A stretch of 20,000 bases of DNA from Asterionella formosa (lineage: Eukaryota). Where the stretch lies: positions 53,116 through 73,115 of the forward strand of contig NKIB01012676.1 of NCBI GenBank assembly GCA_002256025.1, in the 5' to 3' direction. Position numbers and translations under genes: made by a program. This document shows positions 1,265 through 18,778 of this stretch, in pieces; the first letter of the stretch is position 1, and each line of letters begins with the position of its first letter. The notes beneath the pieces are model-generated. The model had not been told where the DNA came from, did no database searches, and saw only the letters and a list, made by a program, of their open reading frames with translations.

Positions 1265-4200
1265 ATGTCGGAAAAGAAGCGCTTTCGTCCTCGTGCAAAA
1301 GGCAAAGCAAGCGTCTCTACTAAAAAGGAAGACGAGGACTGCAGTGCACTTGTGAAGCAACAAGCGGATGAAGAGGATGGGCGGAATCTGTTGAAAGGTG
1401 GGAGTTGTGTTCCACCAGAAAAGGTGGCTGTAGAAGCATCGCCTTTCATTCCTCTGGCACAGTCACCTCCAGCGCCCAAAATTCCCTTCGGCAAGGTTCG
1501 CGCCACGCCTTACGGTGCGTGCCTTGCCGATCAGGAGGACCTGCAAGCCGCCTGGCAGTCCTACCGCGAAGCTCTTCCGAAGTTGGTGTTTCCCAAGGCC
1601 GGATTCGACCACGTCTACGGACAAGCCACTATTGACTCGGTCGACGACGTGGACTTGGGCGAGGACTATGGAGCGGCTGCTGCGTTTACCCAAGCTCACG
1701 AATATGGATCCACAAAAACAACAGACGATGCTCCGATAGGCTCTCTGAAGGATAAGTGGAGAATGCTTCCTCACTTTCTACAACTCCGCGGATTGCTCAG
1801 ACAGCACATTGATTCCTTCAACCACTTTGTTTCCGTCGAACTACGGCAAATTGTGCAGTCACCATCCAATTCAGAATTGCGCAGTGAACATGATCCCAAA
1901 TTCTATTTAAAGTACACGGACTGCTGGGTGGGGGAACCATCCGTAGAAGAAGACTCGTATGCGAGTACGCAGGCCACGCCGTTTCAATGCCGCCTCCGGG
2001 ATTGCACCTACAGCGCTCCCGTTTACGTGAATGTTCGCTACACCCGAGGGCGACAAATTGTCGTGAAGAAAAAGGTACTCATTGGAAGAATGCCAATCAT
2101 GTTACGATCGACCAAATGCTTGCTAAATAACAAAACGGAACGACAACTGGCTGCCATGAGAGAGTGTCCGTACGATCCGGGAGGGTATTTCGTTATTAAA
2201 GGGGTGGAGAAGGTTATTTTAATTCAAGAACAACTCAGTAAGAATCGTGTCATTCTGGAAATGGACAATAAGAAATGTGTCTCAGCTTCCATTACATCGT
2301 CCACGCACGAGCGAAAGTCAAAGGCATATATCATCGTCAAGAATAAAAGAGTCTACATGAAGAACAATACTCTGGGTGAAGACATTCCTATTACTATCAT
2401 TCTCAAAGCAATGGGGGTCGAGTCTGACCTTGAAATGGTGCAGCTCGTGGGATCAGAACCGGAAATTGTCAACGCCATGGCACTCAGCATGGAAGAGCCA
2501 GTTCGTCTGGGCATTCACACACAAATGCAGGCATTGCGATATGTGGGGAACAAAGTAAGGGGCCGAACGCAAAATAATACATGGTACCGAAAACCGACTT
2601 CTGTAGAAGAAGAAGCGAGGGATGTCTTGGCCAATGTGGTTTTGTCTCATGTGCCTGTAGAGAACTTTGATTTTCGAGCCAAGTGCATTTATGTTGGGCA
2701 CATCGTGAGGAGAGTCCTTATGGTGGATATGGGTCAGGCAGATTTAGATGACAAAGATTATTATGGAAATAAGCGTCTGGAACTGGCTGGAAACTTGCTA
2801 TCCTTGTTGTTCGAAGATTTATTCAAGCTCTTCAACAAGGACCTCAAGCGACAAGCCGACATGGTCCTGTCGAAACCCAATAGGGCACAGGCTTTTGATG
2901 TGGTCAAAACAATTCGGCCGGATACCATCACCAATGGTATGATGCAAGCCATTTCTACAGGCAACTGGGTATTGAAGAGATTTCGTATGGACCGCGCAGG
3001 AGTTACTCAGGTCTTGTCGAGACTCAGCTATATCTCTGCTCTAGGAATGATGACCCGAGTAAACAGTCAATTTGAAAAGACGCGAAAAGTCAGTGGACCG
3101 CGGTCGCTTCAAGCCAGTCAATGGGGTATGTTGTGTCCAGCCGATACGCCAGAAGGAGAAGCTTGTGGTTTGGTGAAAAACTTGGCACTTTTGGCGCATA
3201 TCACAACTGACGAAGATATTCAGCCGATCGATAGACTATGTCGTGATTTGGGAGTGGAAGATGTGCGCCGATTGTCTGGAAATGAAATTCATTCTAAAGG
3301 CGCCTTTATTGTATTTTTGAATGGGTTAATCATGGGCATTCATACGCGACCTTATGATTTCGTTCATGACCTTCGAACCATGCGAAGACGTGGAATGACT
3401 GGAGAGTTTGTGTCGGTGTATTTGCACGCTGTTCAGCGAGTTGTTCATATCGCCACCGATGGGGGCAGAGTTTGCCGTCCACTCATCATTGTGGATGAAA
3501 AGACTGGACAGCCAGCTCTGAAGCAGTTGCATCTAGAGTCGTTGGCTCTTGGGATCATCACCCTCAAGGACTTACTCCGTCAAGGTTTTATTGAGTATGT
3601 TGACTGCAACGAGGAAAATAATACGCTAATTGCTGTAACGGAGCGTGATTTGGAAGTCGCCATCAAGCAAGGATTCAAAAATCTAAAAATGAGATACACG
3701 CACCTCGAAATAGACCCCTTGACTATCCTGGGTGTGGTTTGCGGACTTGTTCCATTTCCTCATCACAATCAGTCCCCGCGAAACACATATCAGTGTGCTA
3801 TGGGTAAACAGGCTATGGGTTGTATCTCAATGAACCAATATGCTCGAATGGATGGCTTGATCTACACTCTCATCTATCCTCAAAAACCAATGGTCAAGTC
3901 ACGTACGTTGGACTTGGTGAACTTCGACAACACTCCTGGAGGCCAAAACGCATGCATTGCTGTTATGTCGTATTCTGGCTATGATATTGAAGATGCGATT
4001 GTTCTAAACAAAGCATCCGTTGATCGAGGATTCGGGCGCTGCATGGTCCTTCGTAAGTACCAAACGTCTATTCGACGATTCGCTAATGGTACAATGGATC
4101 GCACTTGTAGTGCTCCCGATCCTGCTGGATTTCCAGATGGAGAAGCAGACAAGCGGTTTCTAAAATACAAGGCAATTGACAAGGATGGAATTTGTCGAGT

Positions 4201-5167
4201 GGGGGAGCCACTTGATAATGGATGTTACATGGTGAACAAAGAGTCTCCAATGGACACATCAACCAATAATGATTTCATGCAACAAGGATCCGGAAGTCAA
4301 ACCCAATACAAGCCATCTGGTATGTCCTATCGTGGTGGTGCTCCTGTGTATGTCGACAAAGTGCTGGTTACTTCGAACGAGAACGAACAGTTTCTCATAA
4401 AAATTATGCTTCGGCAGGTACGCCGACCCGAAGTAGGTGATAAATTTTCGTCTCGTCACGGTCAGAAGGGTGTTTGTGGTTTGATTGTTCCTCAGGTAGA
4501 CTTTCCCTTCAATGAGTTTGGTCACGCACCTGATCTTATCATGAATCCTCATGGCTTTCCTTCTCGCATGACCGTCGGAAAGCTTTTGGAACTCTTGGTT
4601 GGCAAGGCGGGAGTATACGAAGGTCGCCAGGGATACGGAAGTGCCTTCGGCGAAGAACACGGTTCTGCCGATACAGCAGAAGCTTCACACGATGCGCTTG
4701 CACGAAATGGATTGAATTATACTGGTAAAGATGTTTTGTATAGTGGAACATCTGGAGAACCCATCGACGCATATATTTTCAGTGGGCCGGTGTTTTACCA
4801 AAAGCTCAAACACATGGTCTTGGACAAGGCGCATGCTCGAGCTCGAGGCCCTCGTGCCGTCTTGACTCGGCAGCCCACAGAAGGCCGATCACGTGATGGA
4901 GGACTTCGCTTGGGGGAGATGGAACGAGATTGTTTAATTGCTTACGGAGCGTCAAGCTTGATTATGGAACGATTGATGCATTCCAGTGATGCATTTTCTG
5001 CCAGCGTTTGCATGTCCTGTGGCCTGTTACAGTACCAAAACTGGTGTCAAATGTGCCGTTCAGGCGAAAAGGTGGCTGACATTCGTCTTCCATATGCCTG
5101 CAAACTATTGTTCCAAGAACTCCAGAGTATGAATGTTGTTCCAAGATTGAGGCTAAAGGACGTGTAG
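1265..5167 (+). CDS. RPC2: DNA-directed RNA polymerase III second-largest subunit (RPC2/POLR3B), intronless, 1300 aa
   Basis: Universal beta-subunit motifs GDKFSSRHGQKG, PDLIMNPHGFPSRMT, YQKLKHMV, GGLRLGEMERDC and C-terminal Zn cysteines. Pol III-type signatures DKWxxLPxFLxxRGLxxQHIDSFN, IQEQLSKNR, KRFRMDRAGVTQVLSRLS, SQFEKTRKVSGPRSLQ and ERDCLIAYGAS. Confidence 0.97.
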   Translation: MSEKKRFRPRAKGKASVSTKKEDEDCSALVKQQADEEDGRNLLKGGSCVPPEKVAVEASPFIPLAQSPPAPKIPFGKVRATPYGACLADQEDLQAAWQSYREALPKLVFPKAGFDHVYGQATIDSVDDVDLGEDYGAAAAFTQAHEYGSTKTTDDAPIGSLKDKWRMLPHFLQLRGLLRQHIDSFNHFVSVELRQIVQSPSNSELRSEHDPKFYLKYTDCWVGEPSVEEDSYASTQATPFQCRLRDCTYSAPVYVNVRYTRGRQIVVKKKVLIGRMPIMLRSTKCLLNNKTERQLAAMRECPYDPGGYFVIKGVEKVILIQEQLSKNRVILEMDNKKCVSASITSSTHERKSKAYIIVKNKRVYMKNNTLGEDIPITIILKAMGVESDLEMVQLVGSEPEIVNAMALSMEEPVRLGIHTQMQALRYVGNKVRGRTQNNTWYRKPTSVEEEARDVLANVVLSHVPVENFDFRAKCIYVGHIVRRVLMVDMGQADLDDKDYYGNKRLELAGNLLSLLFEDLFKLFNKDLKRQADMVLSKPNRAQAFDVVKTIRPDTITNGMMQAISTGNWVLKRFRMDRAGVTQVLSRLSYISALGMMTRVNSQFEKTRKVSGPRSLQASQWGMLCPADTPEGEACGLVKNLALLAHITTDEDIQPIDRLCRDLGVEDVRRLSGNEIHSKGAFIVFLNGLIMGIHTRPYDFVHDLRTMRRRGMTGEFVSVYLHAVQRVVHIATDGGRVCRPLIIVDEKTGQPALKQLHLESLALGIITLKDLLRQGFIEYVDCNEENNTLIAVTERDLEVAIKQGFKNLKMRYTHLEIDPLTILGVVCGLVPFPHHNQSPRNTYQCAMGKQAMGCISMNQYARMDGLIYTLIYPQKPMVKSRTLDLVNFDNTPGGQNACIAVMSYSGYDIEDAIVLNKASVDRGFGRCMVLRKYQTSIRRFANGTMDRTCSAPDPAGFPDGEADKRFLKYKAIDKDGICRVGEPLDNGCYMVNKESPMDTSTNNDFMQQGSGSQTQYKPSGMSYRGGAPVYVDKVLVTSNENEQFLIKIMLRQVRRPEVGDKFSSRHGQKGVCGLIVPQVDFPFNEFGHAPDLIMNPHGFPSRMTVGKLLELLVGKAGVYEGRQGYGSAFGEEHGSADTAEASHDALARNGLNYTGKDVLYSGTSGEPIDAYIFSGPVFYQKLKHMVLDKAHARARGPRAVLTRQPTEGRSRDGGLRLGEMERDCLIAYGASSLIMERLMHSSDAFSASVCMSCGLLQYQNWCQMCRSGEKVADIRLPYACKLLFQELQSMNVVPRLRLKDV

Positions 5168-5532: not shown

Positions 5533-6228
5533 TCATGCTGCTGCCGCCCCATGCATTTGATTTGTAAGTACCATGGCATTGATTAGAAATCCATTTCGTT
5601 CTATTGCAATGGATTTTTCCACTGGAGTATCCAGCGAAGAAATGTAAGAAAACAAGTCTTCAAAGCATTCGTTGCTGTTCGTAAAGTCGCCCTGGTCATA
5701 GTGAAGGAGTCCCAAATTGTTAAGCGACGACATCACAATTAGAGATGTTCGTTCAGTTTGACACACTCGCAACGAAAGATTGTATGCCATTTCGAAGAGT
5801 TTAATGGCGTTATCGAGGGCCTTGGGGAAACGATTCGCACATATGGAGTTGAGGTGGTAGGCCAGGGCCATGTTGTAAAGAATCACTGCAGACTCTTCAT
5901 GATAATTACTTGATGTATCGCCGTTAGAGAGGAAAATCGGCATGGAACAAATGAAGGAGTTGTCTTCTGTCATGGACGAGATCATGGGTCGTCGAGGAAT
6001 ATTGTGTGACTCCGGAGCCGATTTACAGTCAATTACATTTTGACATTCTGGTTCGTCCCTGGATTTGTCCTTGTTGGTGCTACTGAGTGTCAACGTATAC
6101 ATAAGCTTAGCAGCTTCCTTGAGTAGACGAACAGCCTCTTCATGATGACCTTCTTCGAGGTAAGCGATTGCAAGATCGTTGTAGTAAGAGAAAGAGGAAG
6201 TAGGAAATGTTTTTGTTGGAGTTGTCAT
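5533..6228 (-). CDS. Hypothetical TPR-like helical protein (about 231 aa), of a type common in diatoms that ends in xAAAA
   Basis: ORF 5533..6321; the likelier start is ATG 6228 (MTTPTKTF). TPR-like segments YNDLAIAYLEEGHHEEAVRLLKEA, VILYNMALAYH...AIKLFEMAY and SLNNLGLLHYDQGDFTNSNECF; C-terminus HGAAAA. Confidence 0.75.
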   Translation of the reverse strand: MTTPTKTFPTSSFSYYNDLAIAYLEEGHHEEAVRLLKEAAKLMYTLTLSSTNKDKSRDEPECQNVIDCKSAPESHNIPRRPMISSMTEDNSFICSMPIFLSNGDTSSNYHEESAVILYNMALAYHLNSICANRFPKALDNAIKLFEMAYNLSLRVCQTERTSLIVMSSLNNLGLLHYDQGDFTNSNECFEDLFSYISSLDTPVEKSIAIERNGFLINAMVLTNQMHGAAAA

Positions 6229-6591
6229 GTTGAAATAAAGTACAGAATCTATGGACGTGACGAATTTGTGATATGTTTGACCCAAATGGAAAGATACAAC
6301 AGAAAGAAAAAGAAGTCGCATGTAGCTTCGGAGTTTCTATTGCCGAAGGATAGGAACAGAGAACACGAGGTGCGAAAAATAATACCTGTGGTACAAAGAA
6401 AGAGAAACGAGTCCTAATTACCAGTAGGGATGTTTGGATATCAAGAAGATGTTCGCGGATTTATGCTTCAACCTTCAATGTTGATGGCACGCTGTTCTGA
6501 TCGCAAAACAGGAACCATGTACATGACCGTGAAATTGAAATGTGACATATTCCCCGGGCATTGAAGTAGAGTCGTGTCAACGAGACCGGTA

Positions 6592-11909: not shown

Positions 11910-13276
11910 TTAAGTATCATTTGTCATAGCAACAACTGGTTCCCCTGGGACGTTCATTGGAACATATGCCGTTTCATTCGAAGGATATACTTGACAATAC
12001 CCCAATGTCCACTCTTGCTCATGACTCTCAGGCAGCCTGACTTGAAGACTGTATTTAACTTCAATGGCCTTTCTCATTTGGAACCATGAACGATGTCCCT
12101 TTCTACATTGCGAATGTGAGGCATTCTTCCACCATGGCAAGCCGCAGGTCCATGGCTTTTGGCAAGTTGTAAAATGAATGAACTTGATTTGATCAAAGGG
12201 CGTTTGGGAGCAGTCATCGCAATTCCTCTGCGTGGAATTCTTGCACATGATCCCATCATCTTCTATATGAGTATTGTATATGCATCGGTCCAACTCGACC
12301 GCATTTTCATGATACTTATAGTTTTATAGCCCCATATAAAGGCAAATAGTCCCTGCACTTGTGCGTCACCGTAGAAATTTCCCACTTTGCTTCCTTCCCA
12401 TCCATTCTCAATCGTAAAATTACCCTGAGAGACAGTGTGCACCATTTCTTGATATAGTGTGAGACTAGGCTTGGCCAGGATGAAGCCACCTTGTATGGGG
12501 AATTTTCTCCATGATGTGGGCTCGTTACGATTAGGTTGCAGATAGTCCCGTGTAAACATGACGTCAATGCGTGTGGGCAATGGTTGTTGACCCATGGTAA
12601 CAATGTTTTGGAATGTGGTAGCATCGTTCGACAACATTGCGTCGAACAATTCGTCTATCGGTTGTAGAAATATCATATCATTGTCCAAATGCATAACTAA
12701 ATCATGTTGAACAAATTGAAACGGAATGAGTTTCATCAACTCCCTGGCGCCACAACAGCCCCGTTCTTTCAACAATTTGAAAAAGGAAGGCTTCGTTTCC
12801 TTTAGCTCTTTAATTTCTATGGGAAGGTCTTGTTCCAACAACTCATATCCGTAATTTACCAAGTGTTTGGAGCATTCTCGGGTACGTCCTGATGAAAAGA
12901 CAATGGCATATAGCTTGTAGTCATAGTTGGAGTGCTCATGAATCTGTTGAATGGAATGAGCTAAAACGGCGGCACCTTCGTTGATTGAGGACATGCTGTA
13001 GATTTGATTTGGCATACAAAACGATATCGAAATACAGTAAGCGATGGAAGGTCGAGCTCGTGTCAGCGCCATTTCTGAATGTGACGATGTTAATATGCTA
13101 TTATTCAAGCCCTTGACAGGATTGGGATACTTTACTGATGGAAACACTTGAACAAATATAACCGCTACTGATATTAGAGCTGGCGCGACGAAGAGGTTCG
13201 TATTCCATCGGAAGCGCTTTCTTCGCCCGCCATGTTCAGCTGTGCGACTGATACTGTGCTGCGCAATGGCTGTCAT
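11910..13276 (-). pseudogene. Glycosyltransferase family 8-like type II membrane protein, frameshifted by an 8-bp insertion (452 aa if repaired)
   Basis: Basic RRKRFR then a hydrophobic anchor; AAVLAHSI, GCCGARELMKL, DxD motif HLDND and QVQGL in ORF 12263..13276. The continuation AVELDRCIYN...IHFTTCQKPW lies in the next frame (11910..12293). The junction is at 12316-12329. Confidence 0.85.
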
Positions 13277-13831: not shown

Positions 13832-16800
13832 ATGTCACGTGATCCTCCCAATAAGAAAGCCAGAAATGCAAGTAATTCGAACTATGACAACTTCGAACAA
13901 GTGCGACGAGCAACGCTGACCCGACTGACGCGCGAAGCCCTCTCGGCGCCTGGCAGACCCGGCAGCAGCTCTGACAATTCTCATTCTGCTCATTTTGACA
14001 TGAAGGAAGATGGAAAAGAGGCACGCAAGCCAAAGGACAAGCGAATTACAGACCTATTGAATGAGCACCTGGCAACACAATTCATTTCGAAAACTGAACA
14101 GGGAGAGCAGAAGATGGAAGGGGATGTTGTCAGTTTGGGACTGCACAGTAGTTTTTTTGTGGAAGGTGTCAAGATTGGATGGCCGTACCCAGTAGTCATG
14201 ACGCCTCAGAGACAGGTAAGCTTCATGTTTACAGTGAAAATTCAATAGTTGTTGGTTGTTGTTACAATGCAGAACTCATAATTGCAGTTATGCAATAGTT
14301 TACCCTGATCTAATATTATCCGTCCAAAACTGATCCAACCATTTCCACACCGACACAAAATAAGCACAGATGGCCATTCATCTGATCAAGGCACTCAAGA
14401 ATCGTCGTCATGTTGTCATGGAATCCCCTACCGGAACGGGGAAATCTGCTGCTATTCTGTGTTCCGTTCTTGCTTGGCAACGCTGGCACAAAAAGCGCTT
14501 TCATTCTGACAAAACAGAAGAACCAGGTACCAACAAGACACCCACAATTATTTACTGCAGTCGCACTCACTCACAAGTCGCCCAAATGATTTCCTCGCTC
14601 CGAAAGACACCATACCGACCGAAAATGGCTGTGTTGGGCTCCAGAGAGAGACTATGCATTAATTCAAAAGTGACAAATTCAAAGAAAAAGCTTAACATCA
14701 ATCAGGCATGCCGTATCCGAGTCAGCAACACGGAAATGAATCGCAAAAAATTGTTTAATGATCCCACTTCATTTTATGACGACGAGAGTCCACCAGAGTC
14801 ATTGCTCGATGATCGTTTTGATAATGACGACGACCAGGGGTCATTGGAAAATTCAATGGAACAAAGCCGTGTCTCCGATATCGAAATGGATCAAGGTCGG
14901 AAGATTTCCACTCAAGCAATGTGCTCACATTACAGACAATTGGGACCTAGTCAAACCTCAAAACTGGCGCACGAAGCGTTTGTACCTGCACCAGACCGTG
15001 TAAATCACTGCGAATGCGGTGGTGAACAAACCAAGTTGGGCACACACGATGTAGAGGACTTGGTGAAGTTTGGAAAAGATCCACTTAAAAAAAGAAACGT
15101 AGCTATATTTCGAAGAGATTCATCTCGCAAGGTGGGTATGACGATTGCTCCTGATGATGACGGGAGAATACGAGTTGTTGATATTTCAAGCAGTGGATGT
15201 GTGGCCAAAGAAGGATCTATTAAGAAAGAAGATGAAATCGTGGCAATTCACGGGAAAAAAACAATTGGAAAGAGTCTAGCTAGCGTATGTGCCGAAATGA
15301 ATGAAGCGCCAGAGCCCCTCCTTTTGGATGTGACAAGTCATCCACATCAAGTGACGCGCGAGGACAATGAAGTGTCCCCATTTGCTCCTTGTCCATATTA
15401 TATTTCGCGGGCTTTAGCCAAGCATGCTGAAATAATATTCTGTCCATACAACTATGTATTGGATCCATTCATTCGCAAATCTCTCGACATTAATTTGAAG
15501 GAAGCCGTTGTTGTCCTAGACGAAGCTCACAATATAGAAGATATCCTTCGAGCAAGCGGATCAGGAAAGTTTGGAGAAATTGAACTATGTGAGATGGTGG
15601 TTATGTTGAATAATTATGCTGGCTCAGACAAGAACTCAAGAAATCTTGTGGACTTAAAAGGAAAAATGGAAGGCGAACATGACGAACAGGCGGATATCAG
15701 TGTCATTGCCCATGATTTACTCTTATTTGTGGAGAAGCTGGTAAACTTTCTAGTCTGCGAGAAAGAAAAGTTTCAGAACAGTTCTGATGCCGAAAAGGTC
15801 ATTGCTGATTGGATCAAGTTCAAGACTCCTGACGATCAAGAGTTTGAAATGTCTTTTGACGGCCCCACAGGCCACGGAACTGGAGGGAAAATTAAGGGAT
15901 GCCAACCATTTTTTGAAAAAATTGCTCTGAATGCATCACAAGCTAATCATTATCGAAAACTTGGAGAAGGACTGGAAGAGCATATTCGGAAAATTCACGG
16001 TGATGAAAGAAGTGACAAGCATTCAACGTTGTTGGACAAAATGAACAATTTAATCATGATAGTGTCGTACGCCCTGGAGCACTCGGAGCACTATTATGTT
16101 GCGTCAGTCGTTCAATCCAACGGATCATTAGAGTTTGCAAGTGGTACAAGTTCTGGGGGACTTCGAAAGGATGGCGGCTATCAGCGCCAGCCAAAGGCAA
16201 TGCCATTGGTGTGGCCTCGCACCAACGATAGTTCAAAAACATCAAATATGAAACTTCATTCGTGCCTTCATCTGGAATGTCGTAAAGCGACGAGTGGCCC
16301 CAACTTTCATGAAGGTGCCATTCGACATGGAAACTACTGTAACGGGTCAACTCAGCCTTGGGAAGCCCATCTGGTCGTCAATCTATTGGCCCCATCGAGG
16401 TTGATGAAGGACTTAAGGGACCAGTGCCGAACTGTAGTTCTCGCGAGTGGAAGTCTTGCTCCATTGTCTTCTCTGTGTGCTGAACTTGGCTTGGAAGGCC
16501 AACCACATGAGCTGTCAAAAAAGCTTGGCCCTGCTGTGTCCACCACGGCCGTGAATGATAAAGGAGAAACTCAAAAGAAACTTGAAGAGCTGAAGGGCAA
16601 AAGACTACAAATCGTTCCCAAACCTTTGGAAGCTAATCACGTCATAGACCTCGAAAAGCAGCTTCTTGCCATAAGTATTGGTTACTTTCCCGATGGCTCA
16701 CTATTGACCGTCAATTACAAGAACCAGAGTCAAGGAAACTTCATCCCGAAGTTAGGCGATGCCATTGCGTCGTGTATCGAAGCAATTCCAACTGGAGGAG

Positions 16801-17897
16801 TACTTGTCTTTCTTCCTAGCTACAAGACTCTCAATACTTGTATCAAGAGGTGGAGGGACGGCACCAACCAGAGTCAATCGAATGGCTACTACAATCGAGA
16901 CAACAACGACAAAGGCAGTAATGTCTGGCTTCGACTTCTTGCCAGTAAGGGGAAGGTAATCATTGAACCCACCGGTGGATCGCAGAATTCGTTTGAAGAA
17001 GCACGTGATGAATACGCAGAAACCATAAAGCGCACTGGAAAGTGTATTCTTTTCGCTGTATTTAGGGGAAAGATGTCAGAGGGAATCAGTTTCAATGATG
17101 CAAATGCCAGAGGTGTGATTTGCATAGGTATTCCATTTCCGAATTCCTTCGACAGAGCTATTACAGCCAAAAAGAAGTACAACGACGAACAACGTACAAT
17201 CAATAAGAAGCATGACATTCTTCCAGGTGACCAATGGTACATGCAACAAGCATACAGAGCAATCGCACAAGCGCTGGGTCGTTGTATTAGACATTCAGCC
17301 GACTATGGAACTATTATTTTGATGGACTCGCGCCACTGTGATGATGGATCGCCGATGGACGGAGTTTGCCCAGCCCATCGCAACCTGCCCAAATGGATGC
17401 GTCACCATGTCAGAAACCTTTCGAAGCGACAAGGAGGGGATCCAGATTACAAATCCATTCCTGGAGGTTGGCCAGGTCTCAAACTGGAAATGACACGATT
17501 CTTTCAGCAAGCCCCGATTCATGCAAAAGCCGTGTTGACGAAACAAAACGAAGACTTAGAGAAAGCTCAAATGCAACGAGGAGAAGCCCATAAATTCAAC
17601 AACAAGACCGGGCAATGGAGTTCTCCCTCATTCAGCGTATTGCCTAAGCCGCAACGTTCAATCCCGATCGAAAGCGGTTTGGATTCATGGCATGCTCGAC
17701 AAGATCTGCACTTATCTTCCAAGGCAAGAACTAGTGTGGTTATGTCAGGCACACCAATCGTGGCACCAGATTCAACGCCAAGTAGTATACGAAGCAATGA
17801 AGTGACCCCAACGCAACACGCAATTATCGATATAGTCGACTCCGATGACGACATGCCCTCACTTTCAGTCCTTTCAGGCGGTGAGAGAAGATACTAA
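13832..17897 (+). CDS. XPD/Rad3-family Fe-S DNA helicase, FANCJ/BRIP1-like; join(13832..14215,14370..17897), about 1303 aa
   Basis: Splicing CAG|GTAAG...CACAG|ATG restores the Q motif (WPYPVVMTPQRQ-MAIHLIKAL) ahead of Walker A ESPTGTGKS. Other motifs: SRTHSQ, four Fe-S cysteines (RLCIN, QACR, MCSHY, CPYY), DEAHNIED, LASGSLAP, RGKMSEGISF, GIPFPN and QAYRAIAQALGRCIRH. The C-terminal motifs are closer to FANCJ than to RTEL1. Confidence 0.92.
14216..14369 (+). other. GT-AG spliceosomal intron (154 bp, phase 0) of the helicase gene
   Basis: Donor GTAAGC at 14216 and acceptor CACAG ending at 14369; AT-rich with in-frame stops; removal joins two ORFs in frame. Confidence 0.85.
15093..15332 (+). other. 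PDZ-like domain inserted in the helicase Fe-S domain
   Basis: RNVAIFRRDSSRKVGMTIAPDDDGRIRVVDISSSGCVAKEGSIKKEDEIVAIHGKKTIGKSLASVCAEMNEAPEPLLLDV follows the PDZ consensus (R...LG+.I......I.V..I..GG.A...G.+..GD.I+.+NG....G.....+...+......L.V). Confidence 0.8.
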
Positions 17898-18145
17898 CGG
17901 AAAGACGTTAGATTCTCGGCAATTCAAAGACGCTGCATACCGGTAGTAATTTCATGTATAATGGATAACTATCAATGTAGGCACGAGTTTTGTATCTAAT
18001 GGTAGTTGAATATAATAACGTATTAATTCTGGGAACCGCTGCAGCAATTTTCAACACTGCCCCATTGTTGTTTGTTGTAGATATGAATGTTGAATGGATG
18101 GCGCAATCTTTAGAATGCCAAACGTCACTTGAGCGCATGCGCATC

Positions 18146-18778
18146 CTATAGTCCCTCCAAGTTCATTTGAACATTGGTGCGAAAGTCCTCGCTTGGGCTA
18201 TGGAGATCCAGCATTACTGTTGGAGTGGGTGGCGTCTGACGTTGATGACGCCCCGCTCTGGTGGAGTATTGAGACTTGGGTTGAGCTGCAAATACTCCAC
18301 CAGCCCGCAGATCTTCAATCAGGACGAGGCCTTCACTGCGCGAGTACGAGTGTGTCACAATACGAAAGCAGGGTAAGCGAGATGTTTCCTGTCAAAATGC
18401 AAAATGATACAATATTAAAAAAGAGACTTACTCCAAGATTTCAACCAAACGACAGTCGAACGCATATCCCAAGTCGCTGTCAAAACATTTTCCTTTCTGA
18501 GGGTGATTTTTCCAGGAGATGTGATGACCGGCGTCTTTTTCGTCGGTGTCATGATTTGCTGATGAATGACTGATACCGGTACCAAGGATGTTCAGTTTGG
18601 TACAATCGGCCCCAGAGCAGAACTGGAGACCCTGCCCCATCTTGCTCTTTTGTGGATCAGCGCTGTCTCCTCGTACGCCATGGCGAAGGAGTTTCCAAAT
18701 GCTTGAAGTAGCATTTGCTGAGATGACTAAAGTCATTACAAAAATCATGATTTTGACAACGAGGGATTCGGCTTTCAT
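18146..18778 (-). CDS. Hypothetical small, probably secreted protein; complement(join(18146..18335,18432..18778)), about 178 aa
   Basis: ATG 18778 with a signal-peptide-like start MKAESLVVKIMIFVMTLVISANA. Donor GTAAGT at 18431 and acceptor CGCAG at 18336 (96-bp intron) join two ORFs in frame as CRLVEILDEGLVLIEDLRAGG. Confidence 0.55.

Follow-up and report, generated by a model that had tools for sequence, protein, structure and literature searches.

A predicted PDZ domain nested in the iron-sulfur domain of a FANCJ-like helicase from diatoms and bolidophytes

The window analyzed here is a 20,000-nucleotide stretch of the genome of Asterionella formosa (GenBank assembly GCA_002256025.1, contig NKIB01012676.1, positions 53,116 to 73,115 of the forward strand). 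It carries a gene for an iron-sulfur (Fe-S) helicase, most of which is encoded by an open reading frame (ORF) at 14370-17897; residue numbers such as C96, R248 and C341 are positions in this ORF of 1175 amino acids. An earlier note, made from the letters of the sequence, had pointed to about 104 in-frame residues that separate the sequence DVEDLVKFGK from CPYY, the motif that supplies the fourth cluster cysteine, and had proposed that they form a PDZ domain. Both parts of this proposal held. The segment 15078-15389 (+) is free of stop codons and encodes ORF residues 237-340, and profile matching and structure prediction identified it as a complete canonical PDZ domain, nested where the DIEDLV helix leads to the fourth cysteine of the cluster. 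The interpretation that we favor, and consider probable, is that of an ochrophyte (diatom and bolidophyte) Fe-S helicase of the FANCJ type whose nested PDZ domain would dock the C-terminus of a partner at the leading edge of the enzyme.

The PDZ assignment was supported by a profile match, by a confidently predicted fold and by structural matches to solved PDZ domains. The Pfam profile PF00595 matched the insert alone with 26.3 bits (E 9.9e-6; cut-off, 23.2), and most of the 46 PDB sequences matched at E<=10 were PDZ domains, the best being the second PDZ domain of LNX2 (E 7e-4). An AlphaFold2 (AF2) model of ORF residues 1-1010, computed with 61 relatives (62-row alignment), reached a mean predicted local distance difference test (pLDDT) score of 87 and a predicted template modeling score of 0.86, and the ten-residue blocks from 231 to 350 had pLDDT values of 90-97. 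A second model, restricted to residues 227-350, had a pLDDT of 85.9. Secondary structure assignment of both models (DSSP) yielded the elements β1 (240-246), β2 (257-261), β3 (267-272), αA (277-281), β4 (289-293), β5 (296-297), αB (303-312) and β6 (317-322), an order that is canonical for a nonpermuted PDZ domain. When the domain-only model was compared with the PDB by Foldseek, 321 matches were obtained at E<=1e-3, and the best 50 of these 321 were all PDZ domains. The compact alignments had root mean square deviations (rmsd) of 1.3-2.8 Å over 81-92 columns, and longer alignments had 4-9 Å; examples are 7qct_A, the second PDZ domain of LNX2 (target template modeling [TM] score, 0.83; rmsd, 1.5 Å over 84 columns), and 2qg1 (rmsd, 1.3 Å). 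The profile, both models and Foldseek delimit the PDZ fold proper to residues 240-322 (15087..15335, +). It is followed by an 18-residue return linker that leads to the fourth cysteine (15336..15389, +) and has the family consensus ...D.DYS.hsA; its pLDDT was 93-95 in the full model versus 56-77 in the isolated domain. The carboxylate-binding loop of the window protein, R248...K254-V255-G256-M257, fits the pattern [R/K]-x(n)-x-hydrophobic-G-hydrophobic, and the first Gly of the GLGF signature is replaced in the family by S, K or P. The earlier note had given the loop as RKVGM (R253-K254-V255-G256-M257) and the GD position as ED (E287-D288), and we read the same residues.

The host of this domain is a helicase with an intact catalytic core. 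A Pfam scan of the ORF returned DEAD_2 (131.8 bits, in two stretches with the insert between them) and Helicase_C_2 (143.6 bits), a combination that identifies an XPD/Rad3-family Fe-S helicase. In a Foldseek search of the PDB, the whole AF2 model showed the XPD-like four-domain fold and matched XPD in TFIIH (9pd3_B, E 3e-30, target TM score 0.70; 6ro4_B, TM score 0.73). Conservation of cysteines and motifs was judged in alignments of 114 and 62 relatives. The first three Fe-S cysteines, C96 (14655..14657, +), C114 (14709..14711, +) and C185 (14922..14924, +), occupy columns that are conserved in at least 90% of the rows, and in the motif C341-P-Y-Y (15390..15401, +) all 114 rows share the fourth cysteine, C341, as well as Y343. 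The Walker A motif GTGKS (14433..14447, +) lies in conserved columns and motif II, DEAHN (15519..15533, +), in invariant or near-invariant ones, so that the four cysteines and the helicase motifs are as intact as the earlier note had described them. Directly upstream of the insert, DVEDLVKFGK (15048..15077, +; D227 at 15048) belongs to the Fe-S domain and forms a helix in the model (228-236).

Human FANCJ was the best solved match of the helicase (9ej9; 269 bits, E 6e-79, versus 92 bits for XPD and 83 bits for CHL1). The outgroup protein P0116 from a sponge (stored proteins carry P numbers, and P0001 is the window ORF) matched human FANCJ with 671 bits, which shows that the nearest nonfamily relatives include FANCJ orthologues. 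As far as these comparisons reach, the earlier label of a FANCJ-like helicase is appropriate, and with FANCJ, XPD and CHL1 as the references compared, the sequences make FANCJ orthology likely. In plants, rows labeled "RTEL1 homolog" and rows labeled "FANCJ homolog" fell into one clade, and those names are therefore uninformative.

The insert is retained in mature mRNA, in frame with the helicase. RNA evidence came from assembled contigs of four runs in two studies, X1 (polyA) from one study and X3, X5 and X6 from the second, with X5 and X6 representing one sample; being assembled contigs, these data show presence, not abundance. The segment 15078-15389 was crossed without a joint in each run (X1, 14366-18172; X3, 14858-18335; X5, 14731-15428; X6, 14297-15456). 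An intron of 154 nt with GT..AG borders (14216..14369, +) served as the positive control for splicing and was skipped in contigs of X1, X3 and X5. These contigs are therefore derived from spliced RNA, and since they keep the insert, the view that it is not spliced out is upheld.

The long spacing recurs throughout a family of homologues. A search with ORF residues 1-420 scored 7998 candidates; 615 proteins passed E<=0.001, and the best 120 of the 615 were used. Among the matches listed, 93 are close homologues (P0004-P0096), and in 89 of them 105-154 residues separate the D of DIEDL from the C of CPYY; the exceptions are P0067 (26 residues), P0072 (32), P0084 (29) and P0088 (14). The same distance was 14 residues in 17 of 19 nonfamily outgroup rows from fungi, plants, animals and red algae, with 16 residues in P0116 and an unrelated insert in P0103. 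Organism names, taken from the source names, cover 15 family members: Thalassiosira (4 species), Conticribra, Cyclotella cryptica, Amphora, Nitzschia, Seminavis, Cylindrotheca (2), a metagenome-assembled genome of Bacillariaceae and Pseudo-nitzschia among the diatoms, and Triparma (2) from the Bolidophyceae. A HMMER search with residues 227-420 against 1.84 billion representatives retrieved 3380 proteins at E<=1e-3, 40 of them at E<=1e-30. Among the matches listed, 121 were further proteins, of which 38 had an insert of at least 90 residues, 55 were short spaced (exactly 14 residues in 51) and 28 were unclassifiable fragments. The short spacing that the earlier note took as normal is thus found in 17 of 19 outgroup rows and 51 of 55 short-spaced library representatives. 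In P0117, a helicase that looks unrelated, the DIEDL...CPYF site is likewise interrupted, but by another kind of insert, ~135 residues long (residues ~380-530). This insert contains a PDZ-like GDVII...LLVVRRR pattern and gave no Pfam PDZ match at E<=0.05; it may represent an independent or very divergent insertion.

The inserts of the relatives were also recognized as PDZ domains. All 12 homologues scanned with Pfam had a PDZ domain between two DEAD_2 halves. PF00595 reached or exceeded the cut-off in 10 of them, with up to 50.8 bits, and scored 18.6 in P0003 and P0064; the PDZ domain of P0030 matched solved PDZ sequences down to E 4e-7. Within the 38 further insert-bearing representatives, PF00595 matched 37 at E<=0.05 and attained the cut-off in 35, leaving P0143 (21.5 bits) and P0154 (23.1 bits) below it and P0144 without a match. 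In five library representatives (P0131, P0146, P0150, P0165 and P0169) and in P0046 from Seminavis, the Pfam PDZ model matched twice, inside the split DEAD_2 region or beside it, a pattern that suggests tandem duplication of the domain. Across 91 rows, the best-conserved positions of the insert were Y247 (84 rows), R248 (87), F/W/V255 (83), G256 (89), D288 (87), N at 294 (85), G295 (81) and P316 (82). The alignment shows these positions to coincide with the predicted PDZ core and a carboxylate-binding loop of the form R-x(3-6)-x-[FWV]-G-hydrophobic.

The relationships within this set were estimated with a quick tree, built by maximum likelihood under LG+G4 from 729 columns of 69 rows, whose support values are Shimodaira-Hasegawa-like approximate likelihood ratios (SH-aLRT) only, with no bootstraps. 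The columns of the PDZ domain and of an acidic loop described below were removed beforehand, and three near-duplicate rows and rows with <50% coverage were dropped. The root was set by a chosen outgroup, and long-branch joins were flagged among the outgroups. All PDZ-bearing rows fell into one clade with 100% support, in which Triparma together with P0090 stood apart from 45 diatom rows. The PDZ-less proteins P0067 and P0084 nested with the PDZ-bearing P0080 and P0085 in the 15-row clade of the window, within the diatoms. P0067 and P0084 were considered as representatives of the ancestral state, but this was ruled out by the 100% SH-aLRT support of their clade with P0080 and P0085. We read the tree as pointing to a single insertion of the PDZ domain before the split of diatoms and bolidophytes, with subsequent loss, or skipping in gene models, in a few rows. 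P0088, which has a RING domain and lacks the PDZ domain, was placed in the basal polytomy. This protein consists of the helicase, a UPF0029 (IMPACT-family) domain and the C-terminal RING, and its second Fe-S cysteine is apparently absent in the aligned stretch.

How a PDZ domain could be accommodated and used at this position can be outlined from the predicted structure and from human FANCJ. The N and C termini of the PDZ domain would lie side by side, and because they are adjacent, the module could bulge from the Fe-S domain without parting the four cysteines. According to a study of human FANCJ, the cluster ligands are Cys283, Cys298, Cys310 and Cys350, the Fe-S domain engages G-quadruplex (G4) DNA, and Tyr353, Arg356 and Glu357 contact the adjoining single-stranded DNA (PMC13490418). 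Since the insertion site lies a few residues before the equivalent of Cys350, the PDZ domain is expected to project from the leading edge of the helicase. At this place it would most likely dock the free C-terminus of a partner or of an obstacle protein, and such an interaction would hold the helicase at forks or lesions, or regulate it there. In characterized PDZ domains, a hydrophobic residue at αB1, the first position of helix αB, is associated with hydrophobic (class II) ligands. In the family, L, V or I occupies αB1 (column 303) in 52 of 91 rows; as the position is mostly aliphatic, a hydrophobic, class-II-like tail would be the likely ligand.

Some family members carry a further domain that bears on this interpretation. 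A C-terminal RING (PF13920, C3HC4_3) was found in 5 of the 12 scanned homologues, including both Triparma proteins, and also in P0135 and P0088; centric diatoms as well as Triparma are among the RING-bearing members. The window ORF gave no match to a RING or to any other C-terminal Pfam domain at E<=10. Among the best 60 of 109 PDB matches, the RING of P0030 resembled those of CGRRF1, MGRN1, cIAP/XIAP and MEX3C. We infer that the ancestral protein carried a C-terminal RING of the IAP/MGRN1 type, which would have been lost in the lineage of the window while the PDZ domain was kept. The original machine probably combined the helicase with a PDZ domain for target recognition and an E3 ligase, and recognition may have been coupled to ubiquitination. 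A bolder extension, which we regard as unlikely, is that the ancestor of diatoms and bolidophytes possessed a three-in-one device for the clearance of roadblocks and DNA-protein crosslinks. The PDZ domain of this self-contained device, on the leading-edge Fe-S wedge of a FANCJ-type translocase, would seize the C-terminus of a protein obstacle or of a replisome partner in front of the helicase, and the RING on the tail would ubiquitinate the captured protein; pennate and related lineages, among them that of the window, would later have outsourced the ligase while keeping a helicase guided by its PDZ domain, and animals, fungi and plants would have no counterpart.

RING-bearing members such as P0030 and P0013 also contain a conserved Cys/His-rich stretch upstream of the helicase, H.R..C..H.F...C.KCYC.VCD..A..C..W...HCHA...D..W. 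The window protein does not have this stretch, for which the local Pfam copy gave no match; it resembles a zinc finger and may correspond to PF27679, which is assigned to many homologues. Two other features are present in the window protein itself. An acidic loop between cysteines 2 and 3 (14721..14921, +) is specific to the family in the alignment and bears two conserved motifs, NTE..RK and Y-D-D-x-P-P. Part of the loop is predicted to be disordered (residues 154-176 have pLDDT <50), and the span from cysteine 1 to cysteine 3 amounts to 60-148 residues in family rows versus 38-63 in most outgroups. A common origin of this loop with the PDZ domain was ruled out, as YDDxPP also occurs in the PDZ-less P0088, P0067, P0072 and P0084. 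In the C-terminal tail, ~70-90 residues past the helicase core, the window protein has the motif F-N-N-K-T-G-Q-W (17595..17618, +). The corresponding pattern, F-[NDS]-x-x-[TSA]-G-x-W-[STA], was detected in 22 of 94 family proteins, among them P0004, P0008, P0013, P0044, P0047 and the PDZ-less P0067; many of the 94 sequences are cut short ahead of the tail. Elsewhere among the stored proteins it occurred only in P0001 and in the insert-bearing P0151, and it was found in 0 FANCJ-type outgroup rows. We regard it as a candidate linear motif for partner binding.

Several observations weigh against partner docking by a nested PDZ domain in a FANCJ-type helicase. No ligand of the PDZ domain was found, and the notion that the domain is rigidly docked is derived from pLDDT values. 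The PDZ copy of the window is among the weakest of the family: V255, E287 and H294 replace the family consensus residues F, G and N, a divergence that the earlier note had anticipated, and in the context of the whole ORF, PF00595 scored only 20.7 bits (E 5.5e-4), below the cut-off of 23.2. P0067, P0084 and P0072, two or three members of the family, lack the PDZ domain, so that it is either dispensable in some lineages or skipped in gene models. The lack of a RING in the window protein means that the E3-coupled idea is not directly applicable to it. Finally, orthology to FANCJ over RTEL1 is provisional, as the references compared were FANCJ, XPD and CHL1.

The same data can be read in other ways. 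The PDZ domain could be a structural or nucleic-acid-facing appendage instead of a peptide binder, extending or gating the Fe-S wedge or pore or contacting duplex or G4 DNA in front of the helicase; the PDZ scaffold would then have been put to a new use as a rigid insertion. The linkers on both sides of the domain had pLDDT values of 93-97 in the full model, and the drop of the return linker to 56-77 when the domain was modeled by itself points to a fixed contact with the helicase; moreover, the insertion point adjoins the residues that correspond to DNA contacts of human FANCJ, and the GLGF and GD signatures are degenerate in the copy of the window. Maintenance of the fold could equally explain most of the conserved positions. 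However, the best-conserved residues are the Arg (87/91) and the Gly (89/91) of the carboxylate-binding loop, and this Arg is not a core residue, for which reason we hold an appendage to be somewhat unlikely. An insert outside the protein, i.e., an unannotated intron or an assembly artifact, or a PDZ likeness that arose by chance, is extremely improbable. The subthreshold Pfam score of the whole protein and the absence of the segment from the models of three relatives would fit such an explanation, but contigs of all four RNA runs keep the insert while the neighboring intron is spliced, the insert keeps the reading frame and is conserved at the protein level in 89 homologues, and AF2 predicted a confident PDZ fold with its 321 PDB matches.

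Alternatively, the PDZ domain might bind its own polypeptide or a second copy of it, with the RING tail, the F-N-x-x-T-G-x-W motif or the acidic YDDxPP loop as the target, and thereby mediate autoinhibition or dimerization. RING-bearing members end with ...V-[FY]-[WMVIL]-COOH, formally a hydrophobic tail of the PDZ-binding type, and the family does possess its own tail and loop motifs. The C-termini are, however, unconserved in clades that lack the RING and keep the PDZ domain (...ERRY in the window protein, ...NEHQ in P0004 and ...EILT in P0044), and the loop and tail motifs are also present in PDZ-less relatives (P0088 and P0067) and are therefore independent of the PDZ domain. In IAP-type RINGs, the C-terminal tail normally serves RING dimerization, which likewise counts against self-binding. 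A complex prediction for the PDZ domain of P0030 (712-815) and its own RING plus tail (1795-1861), run with no alignment and no controls, scored 0.01 versus a mark of 0.34 and is taken as evidence in neither direction. We judge self-binding to be quite improbable, and docking of a partner C-terminus is the interpretation that we retain.

The closest known systems each match part of this architecture. FANCJ (BRIP1) of humans, which belongs to the XPD family of Fe-S helicases and has 5'-3' polarity, has in common with the window protein the DEAD_2 and Helicase_C_2 core, the four cluster cysteines and the DIEDLV...CPYY sequence. FANCJ-type outgroups differ from the diatom/Triparma family in the spacing of this sequence (14 versus 105-154 residues) and lack the PDZ domain, the RING and the acidic loop of 60-100 residues that separates cysteine 2 from cysteine 3. 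Partner motifs specific to FANCJ are the BRCA1-binding phospho-motif and the MLH1-binding lysines. A second XPD-family helicase, RTEL1, has harmonin-homology domains (HHD) and a C4C4 RING after the core. A published report places this RING at the extreme C-terminus of the Fe-S helicase (PMC10853778), a layout that is matched by the centric-diatom and Triparma members of our family. RTEL1 lacks a PDZ domain, whereas the window protein lacks a RING, and no structure of an RTEL1 HHD or RING was among the best 60 of 109 PDB matches (E<=0.01) of the RING-bearing P0030. LNX1, LNX2 and related RING-PDZ E3 ligases combine a RING with PDZ modules that pick substrates by their C-termini. The second PDZ domain of LNX2 was the best PDB sequence match and a top structural match of the insert; at 20% identity, this likeness is at the generic PDZ level. 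The domains of LNX follow one another as separate units of a scaffold protein, whereas the diatom PDZ domain is nested in the catalytic domain of a helicase. A nested PDZ domain is also found in syntrophin, where it splits the PH1 domain and is tolerated since its termini are adjacent. The host in that case is the PH domain of a membrane scaffold, while in diatoms it is the metal-cluster domain of a motor enzyme.

In the full-text literature that we searched, judged by title and abstract and with supplements and subscription journals outside the search, no description of a PDZ domain nested in an Fe-S helicase was found. The family proteins are present in public databases under automatic names, which makes the architecture accessible to automated annotation. 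The Fe-S domain of XPD-family helicases is a strand-separating and substrate-sensing element, and disease mutations beside the fourth cysteine are reported to cripple human FANCJ (PMC13490418). The diatom/Triparma family tolerates a whole protein-interaction domain of ~85 residues a few residues from this cysteine and has kept it across diatoms and Triparma; it constitutes a natural experiment on the insertion tolerance of the cluster domain. The ligand of the PDZ domain would offer a handle on what a FANCJ-type helicase couples to in one of the major groups of marine primary producers. With the putative ancestral RING, the family would be a candidate case of a helicase fused to target recognition and ubiquitin ligation.

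The transcripts also defined the structure of the helicase gene. Exon 1 (13832..14215, +) comprises 128 codons and was delimited by its ORF frame and ATG and by the junction in contigs of X1, X3 and X5. Its 3' end encodes ...VEGVKIGWPYPVVMTPQRQ, where helicase domain 1 has its N-terminal strand and Q-motif region, and the exon tail ...GWPYPVVMTPQRQ joins the first codon of the ORF 14370-17897 across the 154-nt intron. Exon 2 (14370..17897, +; 1175 codons plus stop) encodes the remainder of the helicase with the split DEAD_2 and Helicase_C_2, and X1 record 4 covers 14366-18172 without a joint. The product of both exons has 1303 amino acids and agrees with the database model P0003 over the junction. 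P0003, which derives from the same gene, has a spliced C-terminus (...SLSVLS|AVREDTNGK...; region 17860-17979). None of the four RNA runs had a joint at 17860-17979 (X1, 14366-18172; X3, 14858-18335; X5, 15410-18000; X6, 15720-17979); as these contigs read straight through, the transcript-supported C-terminus is ...SGGERRY with the stop at 17895-17897. Among the variants of the RNA runs are 15117 G>A (D250N) and also 15127 G>T (R253L, L being the residue of P0003), both in the variable part of the β1-β2 loop. At the first intron, X1 yielded a contig with an 83-nt skip from 14213 to 14297 and contigs that lie inside the intron (14186-14326 and 14297-14395), which points to use of a different 3' splice site or to partial retention of the intron in this run.

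Elsewhere in the window, a second-largest RNA polymerase subunit of the Rpb2 type with all seven Rpb2 domains is encoded at 1265-5167 (+). Neighboring ORFs on the opposite strand encode a TPR protein (5533-6321, -), a fragment of a PIG-L protein (GlcNAc-PI de-N-acetylase; 1-684, -) and a 337-amino-acid product that had no Pfam match (12263-13276, -). A further gene on the minus strand (18143-18600) converges on the 3' end of the helicase gene. Its 96-nt intron (18336-18431), which appears as CT..AC on the plus strand (GT..AG on the coding strand), was skipped in all four RNA runs, with a contig depth far above that of the helicase contigs.

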